The translations under genes and the position numbers were made by a program. 42,610 bases of DNA from a virus (lineage: Duplodnaviria > Caudoviricetes). How positions within the stretch are numbered: position 1 is the first letter of the stretch; the number at the start of each line of letters is the position of its first letter. Under the pieces are notes generated by a model that saw nothing but the letters and a program-made list of their open reading frames with translations, did no database searches and was not told where the DNA came from. The DNA is taken from positions 1-42,610 of the IMG/VR virus record IMGVR_UViG_3300044728_000289; one strand, written 5' to 3'. Of this stretch, positions 6,375 through 42,610 are shown in pieces.

Positions 6375-6872
6375 GTGGCACTCATTGACAGCACGGCCCT
6401 GGAGGCCGTCATCGCGCGGATCAACGAGCGGCTCGAAGACGATTTCGTCAGCTTCACCAGCCGCCTGGACGACATCGAGGAGAAGGCCCGGGACGTGAGC
6501 GACCTGACCGACCGCGTCGACACGCTCGAAAATCAGGACGGCGACCCGAACGACTTCGACTCCCGCATCGACGACCTCGAACGGGAGATGCGCGACAAGG
6601 TCGACGAGTCCGACGTGCCGGACTTCAGCGACTTCGAGACCCGCCTGGAGCAGGCCGAGGAGAACATCTTCGCCCTCCGGAACGCCCCCGTCCCAGCGGT
6701 CGACCTGACCGACCTTGGCAGCCGGCTCGGCGCCCTGGAGCAGCGGGCCGACGACGAGAAGAGCATCGAATCCCTGGCCGAGCGGGTCGCGGCTCTGGAG
6801 GCCGCGAGCGCCCGCACCACCAGCTTCTTCAGCCTGCTGCGCCAGGCCGCGGAGTTGGTCCTCGGCCGCTAG
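6375..6872 (+). CDS. Acidic coiled-coil protein with R-h-x-x-h-E repeats
   Basis: RLDDIE, RVDTLE, RIDDLE, RLEQAE, RLGALE and RVAALE; AAGGAG RBS. Confidence 0.8.
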   Translation: MALIDSTALEAVIARINERLEDDFVSFTSRLDDIEEKARDVSDLTDRVDTLENQDGDPNDFDSRIDDLEREMRDKVDESDVPDFSDFETRLEQAEENIFALRNAPVPAVDLTDLGSRLGALEQRADDEKSIESLAERVAALEAASARTTSFFSLLRQAAELVLGR

Positions 6873-6879
6873 GCCTAGT

Positions 6880-6920
6880 GACACCTGCCGGCGCCTGCCG
6901 GCAGGTGTCCTTTGCTTGTT
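6880..6920 (+). terminator. Intrinsic terminator abutting promoter copy 3
   Basis: 13-bp perfect stem GACACCTGCCGGC/GCCGGCAGGTGTC, 4-nt loop, then CTTTGCTTGTT. Confidence 0.75.
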
Positions 6921-6956
6921 GCATCCTGGGCTGAAGTCGAGTATAAATAAGACGTG
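6896..6956 (+). promoter_or_regulatory. Repeated early promoter cassette, copy 3
   Basis: TGCCGGCA...TGTTGCATCCTGGGCTGAAGTCGAGTATAAATAAGACGTG. Confidence 0.9.
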
Positions 6957-7175
6957 CAGAAGAAAGCAGTCATCGTCCTGGCCGTCGGGACCCGCACCTT
7001 CACTGTCGAGACCCCCTTCGTCAACAAGATCGGGACCTACACCGCGATGGTCGACTTTGGCCCCAGCGGTGGCCGCCAGGCCGTCCGCCATGCCAACCGC
7101 GAGCAGGCCATCAAGAACGCCGTCGAGATCGGCACCCGCTTCACCCAGTTCATGATCGACCGGGAGGCCAAGTAG
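6954..7175 (+). CDS. Hypothetical early protein
   Basis: GTG start at the predicted +1 of promoter copy 3. Confidence 0.75.
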   Translation: MQKKAVIVLAVGTRTFTVETPFVNKIGTYTAMVDFGPSGGRQAVRHANREQAIKNAVEIGTRFTQFMIDREAK

Positions 7176-7177
7176 TC

Positions 7178-7435
7178 ATGACCGACCGCACGCTTAGCGC
7201 CCTCACCCTGGTCGCCCAGGGTGGGGTCATCGTCAACGAGGCCGGCCACGCGCTGGTCCCGAGTGCCAAGACCGAGGGCGCCTACTACCGCACCAGCAGC
7301 GCCTCGTGCTCATGCCCCGACCACAAGTACCGCGGCGTCGTCTGCAAGCACATGCTGGCCGTCCGTGTGATGCGCACCATCGCCCTGGCCGAGCAGGAAA
7401 CGATCACCGCCCTGGCCGCCCCGCAGGCGGCCTGA
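7178..7435 (+). CDS. SWIM zinc-finger protein
   Basis: CSCPDHKYRGVVCKH (CxC...CxH); GGGAGG RBS. Confidence 0.85.
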   Translation: MTDRTLSALTLVAQGGVIVNEAGHALVPSAKTEGAYYRTSSASCSCPDHKYRGVVCKHMLAVRVMRTIALAEQETITALAAPQAA

Positions 7436-19873: not shown

Positions 19874-20728
19874 CTACGCTGCCCCGAGGACCAGCACCCC
19901 GAACAGGTCGCGCATCTCCTGATGGCCGTAGATGACCTCTGACGCGAGCTTCCAGGCGAAGAAGTCGATGTCGTAGAAGAGGTGCATCTTGGGGCTCCGC
20001 TGCACCACCAGGGCGATGGCGTCGCGGTGGAAAATCGCGTTGTTGGCCTGGCCCGCGGCCGGCTTCACGAGGTTGGTGGTTACCGCGAGCGTCAACCCGT
20101 ACATGTCGCCCAGGCGGCCGTTCTTGACCGGCATGTTCGAGTTGCCGATGTAGAGCGCATTCGACCAGCGATCCAGCGCCAGCTTGGCCACCTTCTCGGC
20201 TGGGCTCATGACGAAAAAGCGGTCGTCCTGCGGCACGTCGGCGTCGTCGAGCAGCTTGATCGCCGCCAACACGTTGGCATCCGAGGCCGCGGTGCCGAGG
20301 GTCCCGACGGTCTGGCTGAAGCCACCCAGGTCGGCCGCCAGCTTGGTGTCGATGTCGCGCGCCAGGGCATACCCCAGCTTGCGCTGGTATTCCGCCTGGA
20401 CATTTACCTGTGCCTGAACCTTAACAATGTCCTCGATGCCAAACGCGGCATAGGACCAGATGTTGAGGGTGATCGTGGTCGCCGTCTCGGCCACGGTCTC
20501 GTACAGGATGGCCGTGTTCTCGGTCTTGGGCCGCGCGGCCAGGTTGCCAATGCTGGCGACCTTGACGGTTTTGCCCACCGAGGCGTCGTCCTCGAAGCCG
20601 CGATTGACCATGGTCGCCAGGACCAAGTTGCTTTCAGTCGCGCGCAAGACCTGCTTCGACCAGATGTCCGGCGAGAAAATGCCGTCGCTGATCGTTTTGT
20701 CAACGAATTCCGCAGCCCCGGTGGCCAT
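19874..20728 (-). CDS. Major capsid protein (HK97 fold, P22-coat-like)
   Basis: PDIWSKQVL...GKTVKV, GYALARDID, LDDADVPQDDRFFVMSP, GRLGDMYG, AIFHRDAIALV, VIYG; GAGGTG RBS. Confidence 0.9.
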   Translation of the reverse strand: MATGAAEFVDKTISDGIFSPDIWSKQVLRATESNLVLATMVNRGFEDDASVGKTVKVASIGNLAARPKTENTAILYETVAETATTITLNIWSYAAFGIEDIVKVQAQVNVQAEYQRKLGYALARDIDTKLAADLGGFSQTVGTLGTAASDANVLAAIKLLDDADVPQDDRFFVMSPAEKVAKLALDRWSNALYIGNSNMPVKNGRLGDMYGLTLAVTTNLVKPAAGQANNAIFHRDAIALVVQRSPKMHLFYDIDFFAWKLASEVIYGHQEMRDLFGVLVLGAA

Positions 20729-20750
20729 GTCTATTCACCTCAGAGTGAGA

Positions 20751-21659
20751 TCAGCGTCTGTTGATGGGAATCCCGCGGGTCAGACGCACCCTGGTGCCCG
20801 GTCGCGGTTGGCCATTCGCGTCGAAGTAGGTCTCGTACTCGGTCAGGCTCATGCGGTCGATCTGCTCGTCCGTGATCTCGCGGACGCTTGCAGCAGGGCC
20901 GCCGTCTAACTCGGGTACCTGTTCCTGGCCAACGGTTTCCGATAGCAGTGCCTTACGTAGGGCAGGCTCGCGCTTCTTGATCTCGGTCTCGACGGCCTGG
21001 CTCAGTCTATGGCTGACCAGGGCGTCGTTGACCGCGCTCATGTACTCCTGCACGCCCTCGGCGTAGGTCTTGCCCACGCCCCATTGCTTCCCCCCAACCT
21101 CGGCCTGCACCTCGGGCGGCAGGCTCTGCTGGAAGGCCACCACGCCCTCCATGAAGGGGGTTGCGGACTGCGCCGCCTGGCGCTCCTGCTCCTGGCGGAT
21201 CAGGTCGGGGGCTGTCAGTTCCCCGAGTTGGTAGTAGTCGCCGCGTGCCAGCGCCTCGCGGCGCTCAAGCTCGGCCTGGCTCTGGGCCTGCTGCTCCAGC
21301 AGGGCCCGCGCGCGGCGCTGCGCCAGGTCGCCCAGCATGCCCGCCAGGGTCGGGTCTTTGGTGACCTCGTCCCGCGGCAGGTTCTTGGCCAGGATGGCCA
21401 GGGCTGCCTTGGGGTCCTCGGTCTCCCGCGCCTGCCGCCACCAGTCGATGTCTGGCGCGGTTGGTGCATCTGGGGCTGGCTCGGGGGCAGGGGCTTCCGG
21501 CGCCGACGATGCTGCCGCGAGGAACCGCCCACGCTCGTCCCGGCCACTGGGCGACGAGGCCGTCTCAGTGGCTGGCGCAGCGGGTGGTGCGGCGGCCGTC
21601 TCAGTGGGCGGCGCGTCGTCGATGAGGTCCGGATGCTGACCCCGGGTTGATTCGGCCAT
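20751..21659 (-). CDS. Capsid scaffolding protein
   Basis: Pro/Ala/acidic N-terminus with GRDERGRF, helical body, C-terminal IDRMSLTEY; directly upstream of the capsid gene. Confidence 0.7.
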   Translation of the reverse strand: MAESTRGQHPDLIDDAPPTETAAAPPAAPATETASSPSGRDERGRFLAAASSAPEAPAPEPAPDAPTAPDIDWWRQARETEDPKAALAILAKNLPRDEVTKDPTLAGMLGDLAQRRARALLEQQAQSQAELERREALARGDYYQLGELTAPDLIRQEQERQAAQSATPFMEGVVAFQQSLPPEVQAEVGGKQWGVGKTYAEGVQEYMSAVNDALVSHRLSQAVETEIKKREPALRKALLSETVGQEQVPELDGGPAASVREITDEQIDRMSLTEYETYFDANGQPRPGTRVRLTRGIPINRR

Positions 21660-22778
21660 CTATCGCTTGACTTGCCCGAATGTAGCTGGTGACTGAAACG
21701 ACGGCAAGGTGTTGCGGATCTGGCTCAGGGCATCGTTGGGGTCGATGCCGTACTTCTCCTGAATGCCCTGCAGGACCATCTGCTGGGTCGACTGCGGGCT
21801 GCGGAAGAAGTCCACCGAGTTGACCTTGTTGGGCGTCGGGATGGCGCCCAGGACCGACGACATGTTCTGGCTGTTGGCGTTGGGGTCGCGGATGTCGTCG
21901 ATCATCTGCTGCAGGTAACCGAGGCCCCCGCTCGCGCCGGTGCTGTTCTGGGTGCTCTGGGCCTGGTCCCCGACGGCGCCGAAGCCGGCCACTGACTGGC
22001 CGCCCAGCAGCCGGCCCATCTGCCCCAGGGCCTGCTGCTGGCGGAACGGGTTGGCCTGTAGCTGGGCCGCCGTCTGGACCACGCTGAGGCCCTGGCCGAA
22101 CTGCTGGGCCTGGGCCTGCTGAGTCTGGACCGGCGCGCCGTAGCTGCCCTGGGGCGCGCCCGATTGCAGTGCCAGGAAGGTGTTGGGGTCGCTGGCCGCC
22201 TGGATCTTGCTGGTGTCCGGGTTGCCGCCGGCGGCGATGTAGGCCTCCCAGTTCGGGAACATGACCAGCTTGCCGCCCTGCATCTGCCCGATCTGGGTGC
22301 CGGGCCCGAGCGGGCCGGGGGCGCGGACAAAGGTCCCGTCCGCGGGGCGGCTGAAGCTCTCCTGGGCGGCCGGCGTGTACGGCCGGTAGTAGCCCGTCAG
22401 ACCAGCTTCGCTGATGCCCAGGCCGACGTTGAACTGACGGACCGACTCCTTGAACTTGTCCTGATCGAAGCCGAAGGTGACGTTGAACTGGCGGACGGCC
22501 TCGTCGAAGGCCTCCTTGTTGCCCGAGGCGATGGCGCCGATCAGGCTGTTGATCTGGGCCCCGAGCTTCTGGGTGTCGCCCGAGCTAACCGTGCCCTGCG
22601 GGGTACCGGGAGCCGCCGCCTGGCCAGTCGGGGTCGCCGCCCCGCCACCGACGAGGACGGGCGTGCCGCCGGCGGCGTTGCCCTCGCCCTGGCTGGCGTT
22701 GATCGCGGCCGCCGTCGGATCGCTGGCGTTGACTCGCATCGAGCCGCCGCCCTTGAGCGGAACGTCGTACTGAGGCAT
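21660..22778 (-). CDS. Probable internal virion/ejection protein
   Basis: Rich in Gly, Gln and Ala, no Cys, F.E.VRQFNV repeated twice. Confidence 0.5.
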   Translation of the reverse strand: MPQYDVPLKGGGSMRVNASDPTAAAINASQGEGNAAGGTPVLVGGGAATPTGQAAAPGTPQGTVSSGDTQKLGAQINSLIGAIASGNKEAFDEAVRQFNVTFGFDQDKFKESVRQFNVGLGISEAGLTGYYRPYTPAAQESFSRPADGTFVRAPGPLGPGTQIGQMQGGKLVMFPNWEAYIAAGGNPDTSKIQAASDPNTFLALQSGAPQGSYGAPVQTQQAQAQQFGQGLSVVQTAAQLQANPFRQQQALGQMGRLLGGQSVAGFGAVGDQAQSTQNSTGASGGLGYLQQMIDDIRDPNANSQNMSSVLGAIPTPNKVNSVDFFRSPQSTQQMVLQGIQEKYGIDPNDALSQIRNTLPSFQSPATFGQVKR

Positions 22779-24421
22779 CAGACCGTGATGGTTACCGTCC
22801 GCTGCGGCGGGCTGACGAAGGGCCCCTGGCCGGCGCGGCCCGCCTGAAACTGCGCCGCCATCTCGGGGGTGATGCCAAAGGTCCCGCTGCCACCCGCGGC
22901 CAGGCCGACCGGCGCAGCTTGCGGGGTGACGCTCGGCTGAGCCTGGTTGGGGCTGACGAAGGGGGCGGCCGCCACCGCGCCGCCCATGGCCGCTGGAGCT
23001 CCGGCCGCTGCCGGTGCGGCTGCTGCGGCCGCAGGTGGACTGGCCACCCCCGCGGCTGGGCTCGTAGCTGCTGCAGCACCCGCGGCAGCCGCGGCCGGGT
23101 GATCCTGGCCGGTGAGTGCCTTCCAGCGTTCCAGCATCTGGCCGAGCACGCCATAGGCGGCCTGGCCCTGGGGGCTCTGGATGTCGGCGCCGGCGCTCTT
23201 GACCATGTTCGCGGCGGCGTCGTAGACCTGCTGCCCGCCACCAAGCTGGGTCGTGTAACCCTGGATGCCCTGCAGTAGCTGGGTCGCGTCGAAGCCCGCG
23301 GGCATGGCGTGCAGACCGCCGCCCAGGGGGCCGAACTTGCCGCTGCTGCTCTGCCCCTGGCCGGCCAGGCCGAGGACGTTGTTGAGCATGCCCTGGGCAC
23401 TCTCGACGCGCTGGTTGAGCATGTTGGCGCCGGTCGTGCCAGCCTGACTCTGGGCCGTCCGCTCGGTGCTGTAGAGGCTGCTGGCGGCGTTGATGGCGGC
23501 CGTTCGCTCGGCCGTCTCGCTGGTCCGCTGCGACTCGGCCGCGCGGGCCGCGGCGTCGTCCTTGGCCTGCTGCTCGCGGGCCTGGTTGGACCGCGCCGTC
23601 TCGGCCGCGCTGCCCTGGCTGACGGCCAGGTTGCCCTGCTGCACGCCGATGCCGGCCTGGGCGACATCGTTGGTCTGGCGCGCAACCAGCGAGTCCAGGG
23701 CCAGCTTGTCCCGCGCCAGGTCGCGGTTGAGGTCCGCGTTCTCCTTGTCGAAGTCAAGCTGCGCCTGGCGCAGGTCGGCGTCGGAAGCGTTCTTGTTGCT
23801 GTCGAGCGCCAGCCGCTTCTCCGCGATCATCGCGTCCTGGGCCGCCCGCGTCGCCGCGGTGGTCGCGTTGGTCGCGGCGATCTCGTTGCTGATGGCGGCC
23901 TGGCGGTTGTTGTCGCCGGCGATCTTCAGCGCGTTGTCGATCTGCTGCTGGTTCTGGCCCTGGTCGCGCAGCTTGGCGTCCATGGCCGCGATCTCTTGAT
24001 CGGTCATGAACAGGCCGCGCCGCTGCTGGTTCTCGGCCCGCTTGGCGTTGTCCTTCTGCAGCGTCGCCAGTTCCTCGCGCAGCTTGGCGGCGTTGGCCCG
24101 GGCGCTTTCCGCGGTGCCCTCCGAGGCGCCGACGCGAGCGACCTTCTCCTCCTTCGACTCGCCTGGGGCCGGGTCGGCACCCTGGTCAGTGATGGTGAAG
24201 TCGACCGTGTTCAGGTCGATGGGCTGGTTCGGGATCTTGGTCGTGAGGTCGGCGTCGGTCGCCAGCGAGACGCGGCGGGTGTTGCCCGCGCCGTCGGTCA
24301 GGATCAGGACCGCGGCGCCCTGGCGGGGCTTGCCGAACTGGTCGACGGCGGTCGGATCGGCGCCGACGGACTGGACCGTGAAGCCGGGGTATCCCTGGGC
24401 GATCTCAGCAACCGTTGGCAT
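22778..24421 (-). CDS. Probable ejection protein (long Ala/Gln coiled coil)
   Basis: Extended coiled coil with AAETARSNQARE as in DNA-pilot-like proteins; no Cys. Confidence 0.55.
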   Translation of the reverse strand: MPTVAEIAQGYPGFTVQSVGADPTAVDQFGKPRQGAAVLILTDGAGNTRRVSLATDADLTTKIPNQPIDLNTVDFTITDQGADPAPGESKEEKVARVGASEGTAESARANAAKLREELATLQKDNAKRAENQQRRGLFMTDQEIAAMDAKLRDQGQNQQQIDNALKIAGDNNRQAAISNEIAATNATTAATRAAQDAMIAEKRLALDSNKNASDADLRQAQLDFDKENADLNRDLARDKLALDSLVARQTNDVAQAGIGVQQGNLAVSQGSAAETARSNQAREQQAKDDAAARAAESQRTSETAERTAAINAASSLYSTERTAQSQAGTTGANMLNQRVESAQGMLNNVLGLAGQGQSSSGKFGPLGGGLHAMPAGFDATQLLQGIQGYTTQLGGGQQVYDAAANMVKSAGADIQSPQGQAAYGVLGQMLERWKALTGQDHPAAAAAGAAAATSPAAGVASPPAAAAAAPAAAGAPAAMGGAVAAAPFVSPNQAQPSVTPQAAPVGLAAGGSGTFGITPEMAAQFQAGRAGQGPFVSPPQRTVTITV

Positions 24422-27400
24422 CAGGGCGCTCCACTGCCGACGAGTCTACGGCCGGCGATCTGCTTGGCGGCATCCAATCGTTTGCGCTCCTCAGCCTCGG
24501 GGGTGATGCCCGACCAGCGGGCGGCGTTCTGGCCGCTGATGGTGGCCAGCACGCGCTTCCAGTACATCGCCTTGTCGTCGTCGCTCATGCGCTGGTACGA
24601 CGGTGTGCGCACCTCGGCCTGGAAGCGGGCCAGGTCGGCGCCGCGGAGTTGGGCCATGGCCCGCTGCTCCGTCTCGCTCAGCTTGATCTCGCTGCCGCCG
24701 CGGGAGACCGTATCGGGGTACTTGGTGAACGGCTTGACCTCGCTGTAGCCGGCGCGGTTTAGGCGGTTCAACTCGCTCTCCAGCGGGCTGATCGGGCGGC
24801 TCTGCTCGCGCGCCAGGACCCCGCCCAGACCAGCCTTGGCACGCTGCTCGGGCTGGCCGGTCATCGGGTCAATGCGCGCGGGTAGCTGCTGGCTGAGGCC
24901 CGGAATGCGGCTCATGACCGTCTGCGGGATCGCCCCCGGTAGCTCCTTGCTGACATCCCGCGCAATGGGGTCGGTCAGCGCCACCCCGCTGCCACCCAGG
25001 CCGCCCCACGGCACGAAGCGGCTGGCGTAGCCGATGGCCGTCTTGCCGACCGTCCGCGGGCCGCTGTCGCCGTCGCCCAGGGCGTGCAGCAAGTCGACCG
25101 CGGTACTCAGGTAGCTCGCGTCCGACATGACCCGCAGCGTGCTGGCGAAGGCCGCCTCCTGCACCCGCGGGTTGGTCCAGTCAATGCCGTTCTTACCCTG
25201 CTTGGCCGACACCCCGGTGGTCGCCTCGTACATCGCCGCCGGCACCGCGAATGGGATCTGGAACGGCCCCCAGCCCGAGTAGTCGTACCACTGGCCGCCG
25301 ATCTTGACGCTGCTCGGCCGCTCGGGGTTGTCGGGCCCGGTGACGTTGCCCGCGGCGACGTTGCTGATGATGGTCATCGACAGCAGGCTCTGCACCAGTA
25401 GCTCGGCGCCCTCGTGGGTGGCCGTGCGGGTGTCGCCTATCGCCAGGCCGCGCGCCATCTTCCAGGCGTGGACCGCCTCGCCCAGGACCGGCGTCCGCTG
25501 CAGGCCCAGCCGCCAGATAGCGTCCGGGACGCCACTGAAGGGGACCAGGGCGTCGACCGCCAGGCCGAGCAACTGGGTGCCCTTGTTGGTGCTGCTGAGC
25601 AGGTCCTGCTTCCAGTCACTGAGGCGTTGGCCGACGCCCTTGCCGCCTTCGTTGCTGAAGACGGTGCTGGTCCCCGACTTCTTGCCCGCCTCGAAGATGT
25701 CGTTGGCGTTGGCGCGGATGACGGCATCCATGTCGGCCTGGGTGACCGCGCCGGCCTCGCGGATGAGCCGCTGGGCTTCCATGGTCGCGCCCATGTTGCC
25801 GGCGATGACACGGAAGAAGTCGTCCGCGGCGCCCAGGGCGCGCAGGAAGATGTGGCTGCCGTGGGTGTTCGGCGCCCCCGCGCGGGTCTGACTGGTGACG
25901 CCCGTCAGGGCCGCTTGACGGGCGGCCCGCCAGGCGTCCGGAATGCTGCCGCCCATGGCCATCAGGCCCAGCAGGGCATCCTGCTCGCGGCCCGACACCG
26001 CCGCCACCAGGGGCTGCTTGATCATCTCGGCAAGCTGGCTGGACAGGTTCATGACGTGCGTCCCGAGGCCCGACAGCATCCAGTCCTTGCTGGTGGCGAT
26101 GACCTCGCCGGCGACGGTGCGACCAGGGTTGGTGCCGGGCTTGGGCGGCCCCACCTGGCGCGCGGCGAAGTCGAACTGGCTGCGCAGTTGAGCCAGGTCG
26201 GGCCCCTGCCCCTTGGCCAGCCCGAAGCCGCCCTTGATCGCCCCCGGCGCGATGGAGCCGGTCAGGGCCCCGAGCAGGTCGCGGTTGACGCGGCCGATGG
26301 TGTCCTGCTTCTCCTTGTCGGTCATGCTGAACTCGCTGGCCGTCGCCCCTGCGATGGCCCCGCCCACCCGCGGCAGGTTGCCGGCGATCAGTCGCGCCAC
26401 CATCGGGTTCTTCAGCCCGCGCGGGCTGAGCGCGCCGGCGATGGCGGCGGCGCCGAGCTTGGCGGTGCGGTTCGGATCGTCGTCGTCGACCTCGGCGCCC
26501 GCGGCCGCGCCGGCCACCGCGCCGCCCAGGTACTGCGCCCCGGGGGCCTTCAGGTAGTTGTCGACGATCTGCTGGCGGCCGGGGGAGATCGGGGGCGCGC
26601 CCTGGGCGCCACCGATGGTCTCGGCCTCGCTGATCATCTTGGGCTGGACGCGGATGATCTCCCGCCCGGCGATCTCAGGGGTCGGGTTGAGGTGGCGGAT
26701 CGGGATGTCGTTGCCGGCCGCCTTGGCCCGCGCGGCGATCTCCTCGGCCACCTGGCGCAGGTTCAGGGCGTCGGGGTTGTCGCGCTTGAGGCCGACCTGC
26801 TTGGCCAGCGCCCGCTCGGGCTGGTTGATGTAGATCGCCGCCAGGTCCTCGATCTGCGGGTCGATGACCAGCGCCTCGGTCCGGCTGGACTGCTTGATCG
26901 CGGCCTGGTTCAGCCGCGCCGCCTCGGTCGGCGTCAGCTTGTTCAGGTTCGGGCCCGTCTTGCGGGTCGGGTTCATCATGTTGAACGCCTCGGTGCGCGC
27001 CGGCTGGACCCGCGGCGACTCGCCCCGCAGGAGCAGCGCGGCGATCACGTCCGGGTCGGTCAGCCGCCCACTGCGCACAGCATTGGCAAGCTCGGTTGGC
27101 ATGCTGGCCAGGAGAGTCATCATGCGCATGTCCGCGGCGCCGCTGGGGCCGACCGCCAGGTCGGTACTGGCGATCTGCCGCCCATCGCCCACGTCGATGC
27201 CCTGGTCCTGCCAGCCGACCTTGCGCGGGCCGAACGGGGTGGCCTCGGTGGTGGCGCCGACCAGGCTCTGCTCGCCGCGCCACATGATCTCTTTGATGCC
27301 CTCGCCGGTCGAGTGCTCGTGGGCCGGGTAGTCCGGCGCGAGCGGGCCGAAGTGGTGGTGGAAGGTGACCACCATCGGCGTCTGCGGCCGCCAGACGTAG

Positions 27401-30400
27401 TACAGCTTGGCCGCCGCGGTGGCGACCAGGGGCTCGCCCGCGCCGACGTAGCTGTAGACCCGCGGCAGCGCACCGGGGTCGCGGGCGCCGGCGGCATCAG
27501 GGATCTGGCTGCTGCCGTAGAAGGCCACGTCGCTGCCGCCCTCGCGGCCGGTGAAGTCGAGCGCCCCGGGGCGGTCGATCCGCGGCGCCTCGCCGGCCTT
27601 CTGGGCGTTGTTGACGACGGCCTGGCTGATGTCGGTCGCGGCCGCCAGGTCGCCCTGGGTGAACTTGCCGGTGAACTGGCCGTGTCGCGCGAGCGCGAGC
27701 GTGCCGCGGTTGCCCGCGCCGGTGATGACGGTCAAGCTGTCCTGCAACTGTTCCAGGCCGCTGGCCAGGATGCGCTGCATCATCTGCTGCGCCTGCTGCG
27801 CGTCGAGCACGCCACCCGTCAGCCGCGGCACCAGCACCTGGCTGACCCGCTGCTGCAGGCTGGCGATGCGGTTGGGGGTCAGGGCTTCGAGGACCTCGTG
27901 CAGGGCCTGGCGGCTGTAGGCCTGGACCGCCGGCGCTAGCTCGCGCTCGGCCTGGGTCGTCGGCACCGCGCGGGCGGCCACGCTGAGCGTGTTCTTGGCC
28001 GCGCGGATGATGTCCTCGGAGGCGGTGATGGGGACCGTCTTACCAGCCAACTCGGCCGCGCTGAGGGCGGCGCGCGCGCCCGCGCGGGGGTTGGCCATCA
28101 GCCCGACCAGGGCCGCCCCGCCGAGCTTCAGGTTGCGGTTGGGGTCGTCCTCGTCGGCCTGGGCGCCACCGAGCGCCGCCCCGGCGCCAACGGCCAGCCG
28201 CTGCGCCTTGTAGAGCGCCTGGTGCTCGGTCTGCCCCTTGATCGCCTCGTCGAAGAGCCAGTGGTGCATGACGTGCTGGAAGCTCTCCGGCGGGATGTCG
28301 CTGCCGTAGCCGGCCTGCTGAAGCTCGCCAATGCGCTGCATCAGCATCTGCCGCATCTCCAGCGCCGCCGGGCTGCCCTTGCTGCCGAAGCTCTGGTTGA
28401 CGGCCTCGAACAACTCGGGCGCCTTCTCCTTGCCGACCCAGATGTTCAACTCGTTGGAGTCGACCGTCGGGAAGTCGCCCATGCCGAGCAGGTGGGCAAC
28501 AAAGCCCTCCTTGGCCGTGCCAACGCCGACCAGCTTGCCAAGCTGGTCAACGATGCCCTGGATGTCGCCCTGCTGGCCAAGCTCGTTGATGACGGGCGTC
28601 AGGTCGCGGATGTTGGTCAGGTTCTTGATGCCCGCCTTGATCTCCTCGGGCTTCAGGTCGCGCGAGGCGGGGTTGCCCAGGGACATCATGCTGGCCCCGG
28701 TGCCGCCCTCCTTCTCGGGCTTGCGTAGCTGCTGCATCAGCGAGCCGGCGCGAGCGGCGCTCACGTCGCCTTGCTCCAGCGCGTCCAGGGTCTGCTTGCC
28801 CTCGGGGCTGAGCAGCCACTGCGCGAAGGCGTCCTCGGGGCGCACCATCTGCCGCCCGCCGGTGCCCTGGCTGACCGCCTCGGGTGCCAGCTTGACGCCG
28901 AACTGGTCCCAGACCCGCTGGGCATCGGGTAGCTCGCGGGCGCTGTCGCGGATGCTCGACATGGTCAGCAGGTAGGCCTTGATCACGTCGCGGTCGGTCA
29001 TCTGCCCGGACAGGAGCTTCTGGCGCTGCTCGGTCAGGAACTGCATGACGCCCTGGAGGTGCTGCGGGCTGGTCCGGGCCTGACCGAGCAGAGCGTTGCC
29101 AACCTCCTGGGCGCTGGCCAGGCCGCGCTCCTGCAGCCGCCGCAGCGTGCCCGCAGCCTGGGTCTCGCCGGGTGCCAGGAAGCCGGTCTCGCGCAGGCGG
29201 ACCCCCAGCGGTATCTTGGGCACCGCCTCGGCCGCAGCCTTGGCTGCCCTGGCCGCGCCGCGTGGTGAGGCCGCGAGGCCGACCAGGGCGCCCGCGCCGG
29301 CCTTGAGGCCGCGGTTGGGGTCTTCCTCGTCGGTGCCGGCCTCGGCCCCCAGGGCCCCGGCGATGGGGCTGGTGAAGGCCGCGGGACCGCCCGAGTAGGC
29401 GTTGCGACTGCGGTCCAGACCATTCTGGAACAGCACCCGCACGTCGTGCGAGACCGACTCGCCGGTCACCGGGTCGGTCATCGGGATGCGCTTGCCGCCG
29501 CTGTAGCGCAGGCCCTCGAAGCCCGCCGCCTCCAGGGCGCGGTTGGCAAAGTTCCGGTCGACGCTGGACAGGGCCTCCCAAAGCCTCATGCCGTCAACCG
29601 CCCGCTCACCGTAGTTCGTAACCGCCAACACCTTCCCCAGGGCCGACTCGGCGTTGAAGCTGTCGGGGCGGTCGGGGCCGTAGTTATCCAGATAGTCGAT
29701 GACCCGCTGGTTGATCTCGGGCGTCGTGGGCTCTTCCAGATCGAGCAGGTCCATGTCGCGCGGCATGTCGATGGCGCGCACGTTGGGCCCGGCCGGGACG
29801 GTGCCCGCGATGTCCTGAATGCGCTGGTCGATGCGCGCCAGGTGCGCCTCCAGGGACCGCTTCGCGTCCAGCATCATCTGCTCGCGTGGTGACCCTGGTG
29901 GCGCCAGGTCCGCAGCCAGGTCCTGCTCGACGCCCTGAAGCTGACGACGGACCTGGCGCTGCTCCAGGGCGTAGCTCTCGGCCTCGCGGAAGCCCTCAGG
30001 CTGGCGGTTCTGAGCATAACCTCGGGCCAGCGTCTCGCCGCCGGGCTCGTTGGGGTACTTCGTCCGCAGGTTGACTGCCGCCCGGCGGTCGCCCTTGGCC
30101 ATCAGATCGTCGATCTGCTGCTGGATCTCGGGCGGGCGGACGCGACCCTCGCCGCGGACGACGCCACCAGCCACCCGCGGATCGCTGGTCAGGTACAGGC
30201 CCGGGCCGACAAGGTTGGCCCCGGCGTCCTTGGTCAGGTCGGTCTGGAGGTAGTCGCTGGCGCCACCATGGAAGCCACGGACGATCTCCTGGGCGCGGTC
30301 CTTGAAGTTCTTGGCCACCTCCAGCAGGCGGTCGATATCAAGCTCGCCGCTCTCGTCGATCAGGAAGCGCGCCACCGGACCGCGGACGATCTGCTGGGCG

Positions 30401-32772
30401 ATCTGCCCAATGGGCGCGTCAGCCCACTCCTGGGCGCCCTTCTGGAACGTCCCGGGGGCGTTGCGGAACATCTGCCCCAGGCCGCTCTGGGACCACTCCT
30501 GCATGCCCTTGGCGATCTTGGCTGCGCGGTCGGCGCCCGCCGGGCCGAGGAGGGGGATGTTGCGCAGGTCGCTGACAGCACCGCGGATCTGCCCGAACTC
30601 CGCGCCGGGCATCGGGATCAGGATGTTGACCAGCAGGCCCGTCAGATCGGCAAGCTCGACGCCCCCGATCAGGACGTTGCGCATGCCGCCACCCTTGAGG
30701 CCGGCGCTGACGATGCCACCCGCATCCATCTCGGCCGCCAGGCCCAGGCCCGGGCTGGTGCGGCGGGCGACCTCGCCAATCATGTCGTCGTAGCGGCCCG
30801 CGGCCGCCGCCCGCATGCCGTACTGGATCGCCGGCAAGATGCCGCTGCCGGTCTGGGTGTTGCGGCCGTATTCATTGATGGCGCGGATCGGGTCCTTGAC
30901 GGCCTCCTCGGGCGTCATCGTCGAGCCGGGCGTGATGCCCTGTAGCTGACGCCCAAACTCGCTCCCCGCGCCCCTGACCGCGCCGACCGCGGCGTCACCC
31001 GCCAGCGCCAGGTTCCGGCCCACATCGAACGGCGCCGAGGGGGCATTGGACTGGGCCTGCTGCGGGTTGGTCAGATCGTCGCTCGGGGTCGGCAGGCCAT
31101 TGGGGCGCGCGGCGGTGGCCGGGCTGCGGAAGCCGGCCTGGAACTGGTCGAGCGGGTTGCCGAAGTCCCGCGGCTTCGAGATGTCGGCCAGGATGTCCTG
31201 GCCCTGCTGGCGGACGCGGCTGCTGATGTCGTCGGCCTGGCCCTGCAGCAGCATGCGGCGGGTCTCGGCCTCACTGCGCTGCATGGCCGTCGTGCGCTCG
31301 CTGTCGGCCTGCATGCTCTGCAGGGTCTGGGCACCCTGGTCGCGCAGGGCCCCGGCGCGGTCAAGCAGCCCGCGGCTGGTGCTGAGGGCGTCGTCGAGAC
31401 CCTGGCGTGCGGCCGTGCCGACCGTGCTGCTGGCCTCCTGAATCTGAGGCATGTAGCGGTCGACGATGTTCTGGATCTTGCCGACGTAGTTCGGGTCGGT
31501 CATGTAGCCGCCCGCCTTGAGGGCGCCGACGAAGCCCGCCACCGTGTCCTGCCCCTTCGCGGCGGCGTACCGCGGGGCGTTCATGATCAGGTCGGCAAAG
31601 TCCTGAAAGCTCTGGGTCAGGTTGTCGTAGGCGCGGAAGGCGTCACGGATGGTCACCGGGCCCGCGCCATAGTCCTCCCAGGTCTGGGCGTTGATACTGC
31701 CCGCGGGGCCCTTGCCCTTGATGCCGAACAGGTTGTTGCCCTCGGCAAACTTGCCGAAGCCGGTCTCGTTGGCGGCCATGCCGATCATCGCCGCCGCGGG
31801 GATGCCGGTGCGGTCGGCCACCGCCTGGGCGGCCGGCGCGATGCTGCGGATGAACGCCTCGGGGCTGCTGGTGTCCAGCTTGATGTCGGGGACCGCGCCG
31901 GGGTTGGCACTCTTGGTCGGCACCGCCGGGTGGTCCGCGTACAGGGCGCCCTGGACGGCACCCATGCGCCGCTCCATCTCCTGCGGGCTCATCCACTCGC
32001 TGCCGCCAGTGAGGTCGCGGCCCGACTGCCCGACGTGGAACTTGCCACTGCCCGGGTCGTAGGCGTCCGCAAAGAAGTAGTGGCCGGGGGTGGAGATGGT
32101 GATCGGGTTGCCCGAGCTTGCCTCGCGCGCGAAGTCGTCCCAGCGCGAGCCGGCCACGATGTGGGTGTCGACGCCCATCTGCTTGAGTAGCTGCTGCTGG
32201 CTGCTGATGCCGGCCATGCCGCTGTTGGGCGTCCAGCCGAACTGCCGCGCCAGGTCGGTCGCCTCGCGCAGGGTCGGATTGCGGCCGTACATCTGGGCCC
32301 AGCGCACCGCGGCCGCGGGCCCGCAGGCCGAGTAGGCCTCCTCGGCCGTCAACTGGTCGTTGCCGAACTGCGAGATATCCTTGAAGGCACCCGTCGCGGC
32401 GGTCGCCTGTGCGGGCTGGGTAACCAGTCCATCCTGTTGGGGGGCGATGGCCGCGCGGGCCTGGTCGCCCGCCTCGTTCAACGCCGAGCCAGCCTGGGTG
32501 CGGGCGTTGTTCGCGTAGTCCAAGAACTGCTGCCCGTAGTTGTGGGCCGGCTGCTGGGCGGTCTCGAACTCCTGGCGGCGCTGGTTGACGTAGTCGGTGA
32601 ACTGCTGGCCGTAGTTGACGGCCTGCTGCGCAACTGGTTGCGCAATTGACTGCGCCTGCTGCTGACCCTGCTTGAGCAGCGTCTCGCCCTGCCGCTGGGC
32701 CTGCTTGACGTAGTCGTCGAAGCGCCCGAGCAGGTCCTGCTTGGCGTCGTCTTCGAGCAGGAAGCCAGGCAT
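24421..32772 (-). CDS. Giant multidomain internal virion protein (C39-like peptidase, GH73, ART-like, HhH-GPD-like, helical C-terminus)
   Basis: ACGPAA...GHYFFAD; ANETG..NNLFGIK..FRAY..YMTDPNY; FHGG..GPGLYLT..YA..GFEGLRY; LVGVGTAKEGF..LLG.GDFPTVD; repeated DPNR hairpins. Confidence 0.85.
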   Translation of the reverse strand: MPGFLLEDDAKQDLLGRFDDYVKQAQRQGETLLKQGQQQAQSIAQPVAQQAVNYGQQFTDYVNQRRQEFETAQQPAHNYGQQFLDYANNARTQAGSALNEAGDQARAAIAPQQDGLVTQPAQATAATGAFKDISQFGNDQLTAEEAYSACGPAAAVRWAQMYGRNPTLREATDLARQFGWTPNSGMAGISSQQQLLKQMGVDTHIVAGSRWDDFAREASSGNPITISTPGHYFFADAYDPGSGKFHVGQSGRDLTGGSEWMSPQEMERRMGAVQGALYADHPAVPTKSANPGAVPDIKLDTSSPEAFIRSIAPAAQAVADRTGIPAAAMIGMAANETGFGKFAEGNNLFGIKGKGPAGSINAQTWEDYGAGPVTIRDAFRAYDNLTQSFQDFADLIMNAPRYAAAKGQDTVAGFVGALKAGGYMTDPNYVGKIQNIVDRYMPQIQEASSTVGTAARQGLDDALSTSRGLLDRAGALRDQGAQTLQSMQADSERTTAMQRSEAETRRMLLQGQADDISSRVRQQGQDILADISKPRDFGNPLDQFQAGFRSPATAARPNGLPTPSDDLTNPQQAQSNAPSAPFDVGRNLALAGDAAVGAVRGAGSEFGRQLQGITPGSTMTPEEAVKDPIRAINEYGRNTQTGSGILPAIQYGMRAAAAGRYDDMIGEVARRTSPGLGLAAEMDAGGIVSAGLKGGGMRNVLIGGVELADLTGLLVNILIPMPGAEFGQIRGAVSDLRNIPLLGPAGADRAAKIAKGMQEWSQSGLGQMFRNAPGTFQKGAQEWADAPIGQIAQQIVRGPVARFLIDESGELDIDRLLEVAKNFKDRAQEIVRGFHGGASDYLQTDLTKDAGANLVGPGLYLTSDPRVAGGVVRGEGRVRPPEIQQQIDDLMAKGDRRAAVNLRTKYPNEPGGETLARGYAQNRQPEGFREAESYALEQRQVRRQLQGVEQDLAADLAPPGSPREQMMLDAKRSLEAHLARIDQRIQDIAGTVPAGPNVRAIDMPRDMDLLDLEEPTTPEINQRVIDYLDNYGPDRPDSFNAESALGKVLAVTNYGERAVDGMRLWEALSSVDRNFANRALEAAGFEGLRYSGGKRIPMTDPVTGESVSHDVRVLFQNGLDRSRNAYSGGPAAFTSPIAGALGAEAGTDEEDPNRGLKAGAGALVGLAASPRGAARAAKAAAEAVPKIPLGVRLRETGFLAPGETQAAGTLRRLQERGLASAQEVGNALLGQARTSPQHLQGVMQFLTEQRQKLLSGQMTDRDVIKAYLLTMSSIRDSARELPDAQRVWDQFGVKLAPEAVSQGTGGRQMVRPEDAFAQWLLSPEGKQTLDALEQGDVSAARAGSLMQQLRKPEKEGGTGASMMSLGNPASRDLKPEEIKAGIKNLTNIRDLTPVINELGQQGDIQGIVDQLGKLVGVGTAKEGFVAHLLGMGDFPTVDSNELNIWVGKEKAPELFEAVNQSFGSKGSPAALEMRQMLMQRIGELQQAGYGSDIPPESFQHVMHHWLFDEAIKGQTEHQALYKAQRLAVGAGAALGGAQADEDDPNRNLKLGGAALVGLMANPRAGARAALSAAELAGKTVPITASEDIIRAAKNTLSVAARAVPTTQAERELAPAVQAYSRQALHEVLEALTPNRIASLQQRVSQVLVPRLTGGVLDAQQAQQMMQRILASGLEQLQDSLTVITGAGNRGTLALARHGQFTGKFTQGDLAAATDISQAVVNNAQKAGEAPRIDRPGALDFTGREGGSDVAFYGSSQIPDAAGARDPGALPRVYSYVGAGEPLVATAAAKLYYVWRPQTPMVVTFHHHFGPLAPDYPAHEHSTGEGIKEIMWRGEQSLVGATTEATPFGPRKVGWQDQGIDVGDGRQIASTDLAVGPSGAADMRMMTLLASMPTELANAVRSGRLTDPDVIAALLLRGESPRVQPARTEAFNMMNPTRKTGPNLNKLTPTEAARLNQAAIKQSSRTEALVIDPQIEDLAAIYINQPERALAKQVGLKRDNPDALNLRQVAEEIAARAKAAGNDIPIRHLNPTPEIAGREIIRVQPKMISEAETIGGAQGAPPISPGRQQIVDNYLKAPGAQYLGGAVAGAAAGAEVDDDDPNRTAKLGAAAIAGALSPRGLKNPMVARLIAGNLPRVGGAIAGATASEFSMTDKEKQDTIGRVNRDLLGALTGSIAPGAIKGGFGLAKGQGPDLAQLRSQFDFAARQVGPPKPGTNPGRTVAGEVIATSKDWMLSGLGTHVMNLSSQLAEMIKQPLVAAVSGREQDALLGLMAMGGSIPDAWRAARQAALTGVTSQTRAGAPNTHGSHIFLRALGAADDFFRVIAGNMGATMEAQRLIREAGAVTQADMDAVIRANANDIFEAGKKSGTSTVFSNEGGKGVGQRLSDWKQDLLSSTNKGTQLLGLAVDALVPFSGVPDAIWRLGLQRTPVLGEAVHAWKMARGLAIGDTRTATHEGAELLVQSLLSMTIISNVAAGNVTGPDNPERPSSVKIGGQWYDYSGWGPFQIPFAVPAAMYEATTGVSAKQGKNGIDWTNPRVQEAAFASTLRVMSDASYLSTAVDLLHALGDGDSGPRTVGKTAIGYASRFVPWGGLGGSGVALTDPIARDVSKELPGAIPQTVMSRIPGLSQQLPARIDPMTGQPEQRAKAGLGGVLAREQSRPISPLESELNRLNRAGYSEVKPFTKYPDTVSRGGSEIKLSETEQRAMAQLRGADLARFQAEVRTPSYQRMSDDDKAMYWKRVLATISGQNAARWSGITPEAEERKRLDAAKQIAGRRLVGSGAP

Positions 32773-36193: not shown

Positions 36194-37444
36194 CTAGCGC
36201 GCGAACGAGTAACGACTGGTCGTCGAGCTTGCCGCCTGGCTGGCGCCCAGGTGGGCCAGGCTGAGCGCCGTCACCGTGTCGTCGTGCAGGCCGTCGGGGG
36301 CGGCGTATTTGACCATGCCGGTCTGGGTCCGGCTGGACTCGTAGGCGCGTAACTCGCCGGCCTGGACCTCGTCGTCGAGCAGGGTGATGGCGCCGTTCTC
36401 GATGGCCAGCGCGAGGCTCTCGATGACGGCGCCCTTGGTCGCGTTGGTGGCCGTCCAGCCGAACACCGGCAGCGCCGGCTGGGGCTTGCCGACCAGCGGC
36501 TGGTAGCCCCGCTGGAGGCGCTCGACCAGGGGGCCGCCCATGCTGTTGGCCTCGGCCACGATCAGCCGCGGGCGGTACAGGTTGTACCAGCGGTGCAGGC
36601 GGCTGACCTGCAGGTCGTAGCTGACCTCGGTCATGCGGTCCAGGGCGACCTGCTCCATGAGCGTCGCGTCGAACATGCTGAAGACGGTGAAGTCGCCCGA
36701 GCGAGCCCAGTCCACGCCCATGACGTACTGGTGGCCGGGATGGGGCGGCTCGGGCTTGAGGCGCGCGACCGCGTCAACGCCGCGGAACACGCCCAGGCCG
36801 GTCAGGTTCAGGAAGACGGCCAGGATCTCCTGGGCAAACTCCCGCTCCGGCATGCTGGCCTTGGCCGCCTCGATCTCCTGGGCCTGGATGAACGGGTTGA
36901 CGCTGGTCGGCATCTGCCAGCTTGCCCACTCGGGCTGAAGCTGATCCAGGCCGCGCTGGTAGAGCAGATAGAAGTCGTTGAGGCCCTTGGGCGTGCTCAG
37001 GAACCAGGCGTCGCCGGCCAAGTCCATCAGCGTCGGCCGCAGCGCCAGGTTCCACGTACTCAGTAGCTGCGGCACCATCGCCGCCTCGTCGACGATCAGG
37101 CGGGCATACTTGCGGCCTCTGGCCGGATCGGGCCCGTCCAGGGACCAGCACTCGATGACGCCGTCGGTGACCAGTTCGAGGCGGTACTCGCCCTCCAGCT
37201 TGCGCCGCGTGATCGGCGCGAGCGTCGTCACCAGCACCCGCCAGAACTCGGCCAGCAGGCGGTAGGTCGGCGCCAGGTAGGCCGCGGGCTGACCAGCCAG
37301 GGCCGTCTGCACCAGCAGGTGCTGCGCGAGCGTGCTCTTGCCGGTCCGCCGCCCCAGGTCGGCCACGTTGAAGCGGCAGGCCTCGGCCAGGATCTGCTGC
37401 TGGGCCTCGTGCGGCCAGGGCAGCGTGATCTTCAGCGTCGGCAT
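36194..37444 (-). CDS. terL: Terminase large subunit
   Basis: Walker A GRRTGKST, Walker B LIVDEAA, STPKG, nuclease motifs GVDWARSGD and HDDTV. Confidence 0.95.
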   Translation of the reverse strand: MPTLKITLPWPHEAQQQILAEACRFNVADLGRRTGKSTLAQHLLVQTALAGQPAAYLAPTYRLLAEFWRVLVTTLAPITRRKLEGEYRLELVTDGVIECWSLDGPDPARGRKYARLIVDEAAMVPQLLSTWNLALRPTLMDLAGDAWFLSTPKGLNDFYLLYQRGLDQLQPEWASWQMPTSVNPFIQAQEIEAAKASMPEREFAQEILAVFLNLTGLGVFRGVDAVARLKPEPPHPGHQYVMGVDWARSGDFTVFSMFDATLMEQVALDRMTEVSYDLQVSRLHRWYNLYRPRLIVAEANSMGGPLVERLQRGYQPLVGKPQPALPVFGWTATNATKGAVIESLALAIENGAITLLDDEVQAGELRAYESSRTQTGMVKYAAPDGLHDDTVTALSLAHLGASQAASSTTSRYSFAR

Positions 37445-38046: not shown

Positions 38047-38204
38047 GACGGCACCATCTTAGGAGCGTGGCAAGCGCACTTGCACGGCCACTTGCCGCGC
38101 TTGCCCGCGCCGTCGCCATAGCGACCCAAGCAGCGCCAGTGTTGGCCGACCTTGCACGCCTGGCTGCTCTCGATAGTGAACGGGTACGCCCGAGTTGGCG
38201 GCAT
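38043..38204 (-). CDS. Small Cys-rich protein (CxCxCH)
   Basis: ATG 38204 at a TGATG overlap; AC...H..C...CKCACH. Confidence 0.6.
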   Translation of the reverse strand: MPPTRAYPFTIESSQACKVGQHWRCLGRYGDGAGKRGKWPCKCACHAPKMVPS

Positions 38205-39019
38205 CAGCCGACCCACGGATCGAACGGCTCGGGTTTGAGCCTGATGAAGGGCGGCCGGTCCTGGGGGCAGACGTGCTCGTGGCTCCACTTGCTGCCGCAC
38301 TCGTAACACGCGGGGTGCTTGCCGTTGCACGTGAAACGCCCGGCGTAGGCCTCGGTGACGATGGGCCGCGCCTGGTCCCAGAACTGGCCGAAGGAGTTCT
38401 CCAGGGTCCGCGGACTGTCGAAGATCTGGAGCGTTCCCAGGGCCCGATTCAGAACCACGTAGCGGAACCTGGCCTGCACGCCGAACTGGTGGCTGACGGC
38501 CCACAGGTAGATCGCCGGCTGCCATAGCTCCTGGGCGACGCGGTCCTCACCCCAGGTGCCGACGGTCGTCTTGAAGTCGTAGATCACCGGTCCCGACGGG
38601 TGATCCAGATCCAGCAGGTCGATGGCGCCCACGGTGGGCGCCCCCAGGCTGGCGTCGCTGGGGATGCTGAAGGCCCATTCACTGCGGCCTTTCAGGCCCA
38701 GGTGCTGGACCTGGGTCAGCAGGTCGATGGCGGTGCTGATGGTGCCGGCCGGGATCGGCTGGCCCCACCAGGCGTACTGTGCCCTCAAATGGCCTCTGAG
38801 AGCGCGCTCAGCGTCGTGGCCGGCATACAGGTCCTCCAGTGCCAGGTGGAAGGCTTTGCCATATGCCAGGGCCTCTGAGGGCTCAATTTCGCTATGCCGG
38901 ACATATCGGTCGGCAAAGACCCCCGGGCATTGGGCCCAGGCCATGAAGCGGGAGGCCGACCAGTGGGGATAGACCAGGCTGTCGGCCGGCTGGTCGAGGA
39001 CGTTGACGGGCTGACTCAC
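38204..39019 (-). CDS. PD-(D/E)XK RecB/Cas4-like exonuclease
   Basis: SASR....QCP, GKAFH, GAIDLL, IYDFKT, QPAIY, C-terminal Cys cluster. Confidence 0.85.
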   Translation of the reverse strand: MSQPVNVLDQPADSLVYPHWSASRFMAWAQCPGVFADRYVRHSEIEPSEALAYGKAFHLALEDLYAGHDAERALRGHLRAQYAWWGQPIPAGTISTAIDLLTQVQHLGLKGRSEWAFSIPSDASLGAPTVGAIDLLDLDHPSGPVIYDFKTTVGTWGEDRVAQELWQPAIYLWAVSHQFGVQARFRYVVLNRALGTLQIFDSPRTLENSFGQFWDQARPIVTEAYAGRFTCNGKHPACYECGSKWSHEHVCPQDRPPFIRLKPEPFDPWVG

Positions 39020-39348
39020 TGCAGGGCCTCGCGGACGTTGGCGAGTTGGGCCCGCAGAGCTTTGCGCGCGGTCTGGACGTGCCATGACGAGTGCAGGTTG
39101 CCTTCAGTCGTGGCGATCTCTTCTAGCGCCGCCCGCAGCCGCTCGTTCTCGGCTTCGGCTGATTCGGCGCGAATCTTCCATCCGCGCATGCCGATCCCTT
39201 CTTTCAGCAGCCGCTCGTTCTCGGCGCGCAGTGCCTCATAGGCGTCCGCGAGCGGCAGGGCGTACAGTCGCCCGCCTTCGTCATCGCACGTGTTGGCCCA
39301 GCGGCGAACCTCCCCGAGGGCCACATCACCTAGTGGTTTGGTCGTCAT
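39016..39348 (-). CDS. Hypothetical coiled-coil protein
   Basis: AENERL repeated twice. Confidence 0.65.
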   Translation of the reverse strand: MTTKPLGDVALGEVRRWANTCDDEGGRLYALPLADAYEALRAENERLLKEGIGMRGWKIRAESAEAENERLRAALEEIATTEGNLHSSWHVQTARKALRAQLANVREALQ

Positions 39349-42238: not shown

Positions 42239-42270
42239 CGCGCTTTCTCCTCGGGTTGGGGAGTTGGAAT

Positions 42271-42297
42271 GGCCCCCTCTGTACAGGGGGCCTTTTC
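42271..42297 (+). terminator. Hairpin with U-tail on the plus strand
   Basis: GGCCCCCT-CTGTAC-AGGGGGCC-TTTTC. Confidence 0.5.
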
Positions 42298-42315
42298 TAT
42301 GGCCTGCTGACGAGG

Positions 42316-42610
42316 TTAGCGGAGTGGTGAGGCAAGCTCGCGCAGGATGCGCACCTCGTCCCGCGGGCGCCAGATGTCGACATCCAGACCGGCCGCCGCG
42401 AGCAGGGCGATCCAGTGCTTCTGGTGACGGCTGGTCTGGCCGACCTCGGTCTTCAGTTCGCGGAACATGACCTGGCCATCCCGCGCGAAGACCCAGTCCG
42501 GCCAGCCGTAGCCGCAGGCGTGGTCCGCGCCGGTCTCGATGGTGTGAATGCCCCTGACGGCAGCTTCCGAGTAGCGGACATGAAACCCGCACCAGCCCCG
42601 CTCCCGGGCC
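42316..42610 (-). CDS. VRR-NUC domain nuclease, 3' part (starts at 210 across the junction)
   Basis: In-frame continuation to TAA at 42316-42318. Confidence 0.85.
   Translation of the reverse strand, partial: ARERGWCGFHVRYSEAAVRGIHTIETGADHACGYGWPDWVFARDGQVMFRELKTEVGQTSRHQKHWIALLAAAGLDVDIWRPRDEVRILRELASPLR
42485..42610. repeat. Terminal overlap, copy 2
   Basis: Identical to 2-127. Confidence 0.95.

Follow-up and report, generated by a model that had tools for sequence, protein, structure and literature searches.

Giant multi-activity virion proteins of phages are already known as polyvalent proteins (Iyer et al., 2017; PMC5512222), and ejection-protein cassettes, recombination at boundary sequences and glycine zippers have likewise been published. 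Polyvalent proteins are known to accrete domains; the evolution section of that survey describes such accretion without a sequence mechanism, its main text (the FTP supplement lay outside the search) holds no occurrence of 'glycine', 'transmembrane' or 'linker', and a way of in-frame accretion was not shown in the literature examined. The present analysis concerns a 42.6-kb phage record that looks complete (IMGVR_UViG_3300044728_000289; the window in what follows is this whole stretch of 42,610 nucleotides) and a giant protein encoded on its minus strand. We consider it fairly probable that this is a giant, likely ejected protein in which repeats containing the sequence DPNR are duplicated copies of a family hairpin closing a cargo slot, and that these copies are likely joints or crossover points for added modules. 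Neither the hairpin family nor its role as a cargo joint was found among the titles and abstract openings returned by literature searches, nor was a paper on glycine zippers in phage internal virion proteins.

The window protein resembles phage-type polyvalent proteins (PMC5512222) in being a giant multi-activity protein encoded among virion genes, with a lysozyme-type domain and an ADP-ribosyltransferase (ART)-like module of H-Y-D pattern. Unlike those described there, it has no Pfam match to LPD, MuF or MPTase domains, which are common and not universal markers of polyvalent proteins; family members that share its ART and hairpin (P0022, P0051, P0054) end in an LPD38 domain above cut-off. 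With the T7 gp16-like ejection proteins (PHROG 6651; Synechococcus and Pelagibacter podophages; ProddE) it shares a homologous helical core, a muralytic N-terminus and its place as the largest of three adjacent genes, the ejectosome being made of three proteins (PMC13434306). It is, however, about twice as large, its cargo slot is variable and its hairpin is repeated, and its core does not match a solved ejection-protein structure. In phage phi24B, gp47 is a polyvalent protein of 2811 residues that proteomics detected in virions and for which an ejection role has been proposed (bioRxiv 10.64898/2026.04.10.717836); its domains differ from those of the window protein, being LPD5, LPD1, LPD38 and MuF-C, and no repeats are described in the passages available. 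Short conserved sequences have been proposed as inter-module crossover points in phage mosaicism (PMC3029335); here, by contrast, the boundary is an in-frame protein motif within one gene, apparently copied each time a module is added. Glycine-zipper effectors such as Tde1 (PMC10240207) have GxxxG-type runs as the hairpin does, but the arms in the window are shorter, weakly hydrophobic, placed after the cargo and under the Pfam glycine-zipper cut-offs.

Three related Gly/Ala linkers had been claimed from the letters alone in an earlier note on this DNA, and the claim stands. DPNR starts at residues 1151, 1543 and 2099 (window 29320-22, 28144-46 and 26476-78) and nowhere else in the protein, and the pairwise local scores of the three repeats (118, 81 and 90; shuffle maxima 59, 57 and 54) were each reached by 0 of 2000 shuffles. 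Repeats 1 to 3 fall at module boundaries, as had also been proposed. At the DNA level, repeats 1 and 2 form a 107-nt direct repeat, 71% identical and spaced by 1176 nt, and their similarity continues for about 15 residues after the hairpin, reaching the beginning of module 3. The degenerate fourth linker was missed by a profile made of DPNR copies only. A leave-out profile (48 hairpins of other proteins, the window protein and P0002 excluded) gave exactly four positive sites, of 16.8, 7.2, 23.2 and 8.4 bits, the second and fourth of which barely exceed the best of 200 shuffles (6.6 bits); the fourth copy is therefore taken as real but marginal. A degenerate DPNR pattern in DNA had 0 matches in viral contigs. 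Contigs of other sequencing runs bridge the junctions of repeat 1 with module 2 (X4 record 14, X5 record 21) and of module 2 with repeat 2 (X3 record 4, X20 record 12) and span repeat 3 (X5 record 17), so the module order is no assembly artefact.

The relative P0002 (2393 residues, about 66% identical) is encoded on contig L038, the capsid protein of which is 98.6% identical to that of the window. Compared with the window protein it shows a single gap of 392 residues, equal to the distance from the first DPNR to the second (1151-1543), and its lone linker at the gap has the left flank of repeat 1 and the right flank of repeat 2, both in protein and in DNA. One 119-bp stretch of L038 aligns with both window repeat copies. 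In a hairpin tree the five DPNR copies of the two proteins form one clade (99/89), in which repeats 1 and 2 and the P0002 hybrid are a sub-clade (98/90); in P0006 and P0033, by contrast, module 2 is followed by hairpins of another type. Since the window copies form one clade, they appear to have arisen via duplication within the gene; the indel with its hybrid linker, the clade and the run-on similarity would all fit a joint duplicated in-gene when a module was added. As to direction, gain of module 2 by the window phage and its loss by the P0002 phage are both compatible with these sequences, and both stand. In a further contig, from another run (X5 record 20), identity is 99% from the module-3 side as far as position 28157, within repeat 2, and falls to about 84% in module 2. 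This switch, the indel with its hybrid linker and the partner shuffling described below bear out the suggestion that the linkers could be recombination joints.

A hairpin profile search of 1.84 billion representatives gave 53 protein matches. In a family set of 60 proteins, 48 have one hairpin and 10 have none, more being found only in the window protein (4) and P0002 (3). Left out of this set were short or unrelated proteins (P0024, P0029, P0044, P0052, P0055, P0046, P0016), P0043 as a member of another family, L032 and L020 as duplicates of P0010 and P0026, and L044 and L045 as near copies of L042 and L043. In all 40 proteins with both a hairpin and the core, the core comes after the last hairpin. 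Among 16 giants found via the portal-like gene, the wall enzymes or the core, a full hairpin is present in 7 (all of them profile seeds) and not in 9, three of which have a half hairpin by eye. The 53 hairpins with at least 60 residues upstream are preceded by an ART in 13 cases, a DUF7178-like module in 9 and module 2 in 3, and the preceding sequences fall into 22 clusters; across the hairpin, the ART is paired with 6 downstream types and the DUF7178-like module and module 2 with 3 each. By these pairings, the hairpin is a point across which the sequences on its two sides have changed partners; usually single and without a Pfam family above cut-off, it closes a cargo slot that holds an ART-like, DUF7178-like or module-2 domain. 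The profile search and comparison of relatives that the earlier note had recommended thus found the number and identity of the modules to vary.

Several observations count against the interpretation of the hairpin as a duplicated joint. Most members of the family set were reached by way of the hairpin, which biases the set towards its carriers, and the tree has only 47 columns for 55 rows. The exact hairpin-to-hairpin indel is known from one phage pair, and in 8 runs holding near-identical strains none of the contigs was seen to skip the 1176 nt (joints with sides of 21-39 nt were disregarded in this comparison as likely foreign). The exchange contig X5 record 20 is single, at a depth of 3.6, and a second run ending at the same place comes from the same study. 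Hairpins are modestly enriched at the ends of homology blocks (58 of 503 end bins, 34.4 expected), an enrichment that low-complexity masking could inflate, and other boundaries are equally frequent. Wall-enzyme domains are exchanged without any repeats, and a 90-residue indel between P0040 and P0056 is away from any hairpin; that pair had been considered as a hairpin indel and was rejected, the difference being a truncation plus the 90-residue insertion.

The window protein has several disparate catalytic domains in one polypeptide, namely GH73 (above cut-off), a C39-like domain, the ART-like module and module 2. Its core matches the PHROG 6651 'internal virion protein' (E 7e-11) and, by tblastn, 'internal virion protein D' of Desulfovibrio phage ProddE (E 3e-7) and the annotated internal virion protein of S-CBP1. 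A core model from 30 sequences (mean predicted local distance difference test, pLDDT, 69) had 53 matches at E <=0.001 in Foldseek BFVD, to internal virion and polyvalent proteins (best 5e-13), LPD-annotated proteins included. Against the PDB this model gave no clear match (Foldseek best E 0.03; VIA-align best Z 5.8), which would not by itself mean a new fold. In viral contigs no relative was found with the C-terminal core as a single-protein query, nor with the whole two-protein alignment, the patterns of which were poor. The core match and the N-terminal wall hydrolases are in keeping with the modular, probably ejected protein that had been proposed, and the giant is most likely a gp16-type ejection protein of the polyvalent kind, a predicted virion protein.

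Across the giants of L002-L043 and P0004-P0054, the wall-enzyme slot has one glycan hydrolase and one peptidase, in either order. The 11 scanned relatives pair an SLT or GH73 glycan hydrolase with a C39-like or M23 peptidase, and NlpC/P60 occupies the peptidase slot in two further relatives. In P0005, a LAGLIDADG endonuclease, probably an intein, interrupts the C39-like domain (residues 589-650).

We envisage that the giant protein would travel inside the virion and enter the host by ejection, its two N-terminal hydrolases breaching the cell wall; membrane passage may take place near residues 701-719, with the downstream stretch reaching the cytoplasm. Each hairpin would then serve as a tether or packing element resembling a glycine zipper, and by its in-and-out course would keep successive modules on the same side of the membrane, so that 'cargo + hairpin' could be stacked without a change of topology. 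The ART-like and HhH (helix-hairpin-helix)-like modules may modify host proteins or DNA early in infection. A cargo module would have been added by recombination duplicating the joint, and the extra copies may now serve as crossover points. The membrane role of the hairpin is conjectural, and low pLDDT and Kyte-Doolittle maxima of 0.5-1.0 speak against it. The description of the linkers as small-residue hydrophobic helices holds for the small residues, the 19-residue maxima being no higher than 0.53-0.83 in repeats 1-3 (0.53-1.01 over the four copies), so the arms are weakly hydrophobic. In repeats 3 and 4 the pLDDT stays below 50 over the greater part of their length. Besides being poorly predicted, the hairpin lacks the hydrophobicity that a standard double span would need.

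The window family likely shows how polyvalent proteins accrete domains, offering a concrete case with a repeat-to-repeat indel and hybrid joint, partner shuffling, and a second case with another repeat. Because the hairpin marks the cargo slot, new early-acting phage enzymes (module 2, module 3, DUF7178-like) may be readable by position, and a natural plug-in slot of an ejection protein bears on what phages deliver before gene expression begins.

That second case is L018, in which an ART lies between two copies of a repeat of ~100 residues unrelated to the hairpin (score 295, shuffle maximum 66); in DNA, a ~290-nt direct repeat (L018:5478-5771 and 6890-7184; 207/287 identical) brackets the ART cargo and half a hairpin. 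Similarly, L009 is without the ART that L022 has between weaker duplicates. Cargo between duplicates occurs also with an unrelated repeat, and the mechanism is therefore generic. No duplication was found around the half-ART of L017 (score 30, shuffle mean 35). P0041 has two cargos stacked, with one half and one full hairpin.

Such a generic duplication pattern would also suit extra repeats that are inert scars or flexible spacers left by duplication, with only repeat 3/4, or none, being structural. The extra copies in the window are without the upstream motif and part of helix 1, and six relatives were counted with the core and no full hairpin (P0056 there is an artefact and has one). In repeats 1 and 2, however, the acidic-DPNR-x-x-K-x-G and Gly pattern is retained, with a DNA identity of about 70%, and conservation of the hairpin extends to proteins whose flanks are unrelated; we regard inert scars as unlikely.

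Another possibility, put forward in the earlier note, is that each hairpin is a glycine-zipper translocator carrying its adjacent effector module across the host membrane. Runs of small-xxx-small-xxx-small are present in all four copies (in both arms in repeat 3 only), Pfam glycine-zipper matches are weak in repeat 3 (E about 1, below cut-off) and in some profile hits (P0046, E 4e-5), and the type VI secretion effector Tde1 is a precedent (PMC10240207). Hairpin-like units also bracket a zincin peptidase independently in P0043, an unrelated giant of 2005 residues with three such units and an HtpX/M48-like zincin between the first two. Against this, the arms are short and weakly hydrophobic, the hairpin comes after the cargo and not before it, ART or DUF7178-like cargo occurs with one, half (L017, L018, L022, P0041) or no hairpin, and in L018 the cargo is flanked by duplicates of unrelated sequence. 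Translocation module by module is less likely because most relatives manage with one hairpin or none, and we think it quite improbable.

It may also be asked whether the joints are proteolytic release sites, with a host protease at the membrane, perhaps of prepilin/TadV type, cutting a G-R-Q-x-G/A motif before the hairpin and acidic-Gly motifs before the cargo and so freeing the cargo. The pre-hairpin motif G-R-Q-x-G/A is strongly conserved (R 31, Q 37, G/A 50, F 33, A 41 and L 42 of 55 rows) and outscores shuffles by a wide margin, and short R-Q-x-G or D-E-x-G motifs precede the cargo in several relatives. The RQxG motif resembles pilin-type cleavage sites, but it fails the published prepilin motif and has no Pfam support: TadE/Flp/N-methyl families matched in 0 of 12 segments. 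It is also gone from all window and P0002 copies (scores -11 to -18), and the long form does not recur ahead of the ART domains. Prepilin peptidases cleave at G/A ahead of a hydrophobic stretch, but the motif [GAS]-X4-[DE] requires D/E at +5, near the N-terminus and before one transmembrane helix (PMC3244431), whereas the family consensus has P/R/A/Q at +5, deep inside the protein. Processing of polyvalent proteins has been predicted by Iyer et al. (PMC5512222), and no zincin was detected in the window protein. In the unrelated polyvalent phage MW202675.1, a different short double-Gly motif stands after a homologue of module 2 and at other domain ends. A processing site at DPNR or SPR, as had been suggested, is not borne out, the family's candidate cleavage motif lying upstream of the hairpin and being lost in the window copies. 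The C39-like domain was considered as a self-processing enzyme and rejected; it is an unlikely cutter because two peptidase motifs (C39, M23, NlpC) occur together in 0 of 60 proteins and the RQ motif occurs with C39 (13), M23 (7) or neither (16). Overall we give release sites little credence. A combined version, in which 'cut site + membrane hairpin' would be a universal cargo joint of this phage family, the ejected protein would be anchored in the host membrane, a prepilin-type host peptidase would free each enzyme into the cytoplasm and the motif would be the DNA crossover point for in-frame stacking and swapping, seems to us improbable.

The genes between portal and capsid in MW202675.1 (L046:7089-15751) deserve separate mention. 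In four of them the short double-Gly motif stands at what look like domain ends, with 5, 1, 2 and 7 regex matches against 0 in the portal; these four hold ART-PolyVal, M15, GNAT, InPase and the module-2 homologue.

The coordinates of the giant protein, its parts and its neighbours are collected in Table 1.

Table 1. Features of the giant protein and neighbouring genes in the window.
Feature	Residues	Window position	Strand	Basis or remark
Giant internal-virion/polyvalent protein	2783 aa	24421..32772	(-)	Open reading frame (ORF), Pfam, PHROG, Foldseek BFVD
C39-like peptidase, likely wall peptidase	144-246	32035..32343	(-)	Pfam PF13529, E 7e-5 as segment, below cut-off
GH73 glucosaminidase	312-440	31453..31839	(-)	Pfam PF01832, E 2e-24
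Most hydrophobic segment, candidate membrane span between wall enzymes and cargo	701-719	30616..30672	(-)	Kyte-Doolittle (19 residues) 1.79
Short acidic-Gly motif ahead of ART module	803-812	30337..30366	(-)	Also precedes cargo in P0002, P0020, P0053, P0041
Module 1, ADP-ribosyltransferase-like		29401..30285	(-)	H835/Y860/D1110 motifs
Repeat 1	1135-1172	29257..29370	(-)	Similarity to repeat 2 extends to about residue 1189 (29206)
392-codon unit (half repeat 1, module 2, half repeat 2)		28132..29307	(-)	Missing from P0002/L038
Module 2, HhH-like motif with K1421/D1438, mobile cargo	1215-1526	28195..29130	(-)	Homologues
Repeat 2	1527-1564	28081..28194	(-)	Candidate allele-exchange point at about 28157
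Module 3	1583-2078	26539..28026	(-)	Lone homologue found is P0002 (70%)
Repeat 3	2079-2119	26416..26538	(-)	The family's usual single-hairpin position before the core
Degenerate fourth hairpin	2130-2180	26233..26385	(-)	Also in P0002
Conserved alpha-helical core, internal-virion-protein-like	2209-2783	24424..26148	(-)	PHROG 6651, tblastn, Foldseek BFVD
Terminase		36194-37444	(-)	
Portal-like gene	659 aa		(-)	Named by position; without family match
Ala/Gly/Gln-rich gene, candidate second ejection protein	547 aa	22778..24421	(-)	Inferred from position
Candidate third ejection protein	372 aa	21660..22778	(-)	Inferred from position

Within the cargo slot, H835 and Y860 of module 1 are invariant and D1110 is present in 3 of 4 rows, so that the module shows the H-Y-D pattern described for polyvalent ARTs (PMC5512222). 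ART-PolyVal (PF18760) gave weak matches in relatives (E 0.0018-0.033) and none for the window copy, and no match to the module was found among GenBank phages or PDB sequences. ART modules with the middle mostly deleted and both ends kept were seen in L017 (residues 642-730), L032 (781-840) and P0038 (702-749).

Module 2 has homologues in P0006 (58%), P0033 (36%) and MW202675.1 (30%), the last in an InPase-bearing protein beside an ART-PolyVal gene. The HhH-GPD-like label proposed for it was confirmed by no library, but K1421 and D1438 are invariant in 4 of 4 homologues, and they fit an HhH-type site, in which a Lys is followed by a catalytic Asp. An atlas label of DUF7178 (0.93) came with a low recognition score; PF23802 (DUF7178) was unmatched for the module within its own genome, hhalign with the DUF7178-like group gave 0.1%, and no paper on DUF7178 was found. 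Module 2 had no match in the PDB and none among proteins of 607-2000 residues, and a single-sequence fold of repeat 1, module 2 and repeat 2 was unusable (pLDDT 42). Module 3 had no match in Pfam, PADLOC, PHROGs or NCBIfam, nor among proteins of 212-678 residues, phages, PDB sequences or the atlas. By eye, module 3 resembles DarT-type ARTs, but nothing supported the resemblance and we make no such claim.

The giant gene is placed among late virion genes, the order on the minus strand being terminase, portal-like gene, giant ORF, genes of 547, 372 and 302 residues, and the major capsid gene. The 547- and 372-residue genes, directly after the giant gene, have homologues in 6 and 8 fetched loci, respectively, and no family match in library scans of the window proteins. 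Between the window (19874-32772) and L038, identity is 98.6% for the capsid protein, 94% for the 372-residue, 86% for the 302-residue and 61% for the 547-residue protein and about 66% for the giant, the fastest-diverging genes being the two putative ejection genes (547-residue and giant). Soil metagenomes are the main source of near-identical DNA. The sole host lead, a weak one, points to Chloroflexota and comes from L037, a 1.7-kb contig of a Chloroflexota metagenome-assembled genome with a portal-like gene 64% identical.

Elsewhere in the window, genes for an N6/N4 DNA methylase (200-1429), a primase-polymerase/AAA helicase (40130-42592) and a PD-(D/E)XK exonuclease (38204-39085) lie on the minus strand. 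ARAGORN placed a tRNA-Trp at 6743-6826 (-), which overlaps a 165-residue ORF on the opposite strand (6375-6872) and may be spurious. The portal-like ORF of L023 (9956-12943) is 996 residues long, compared with the usual ~660, and has an internal insertion.

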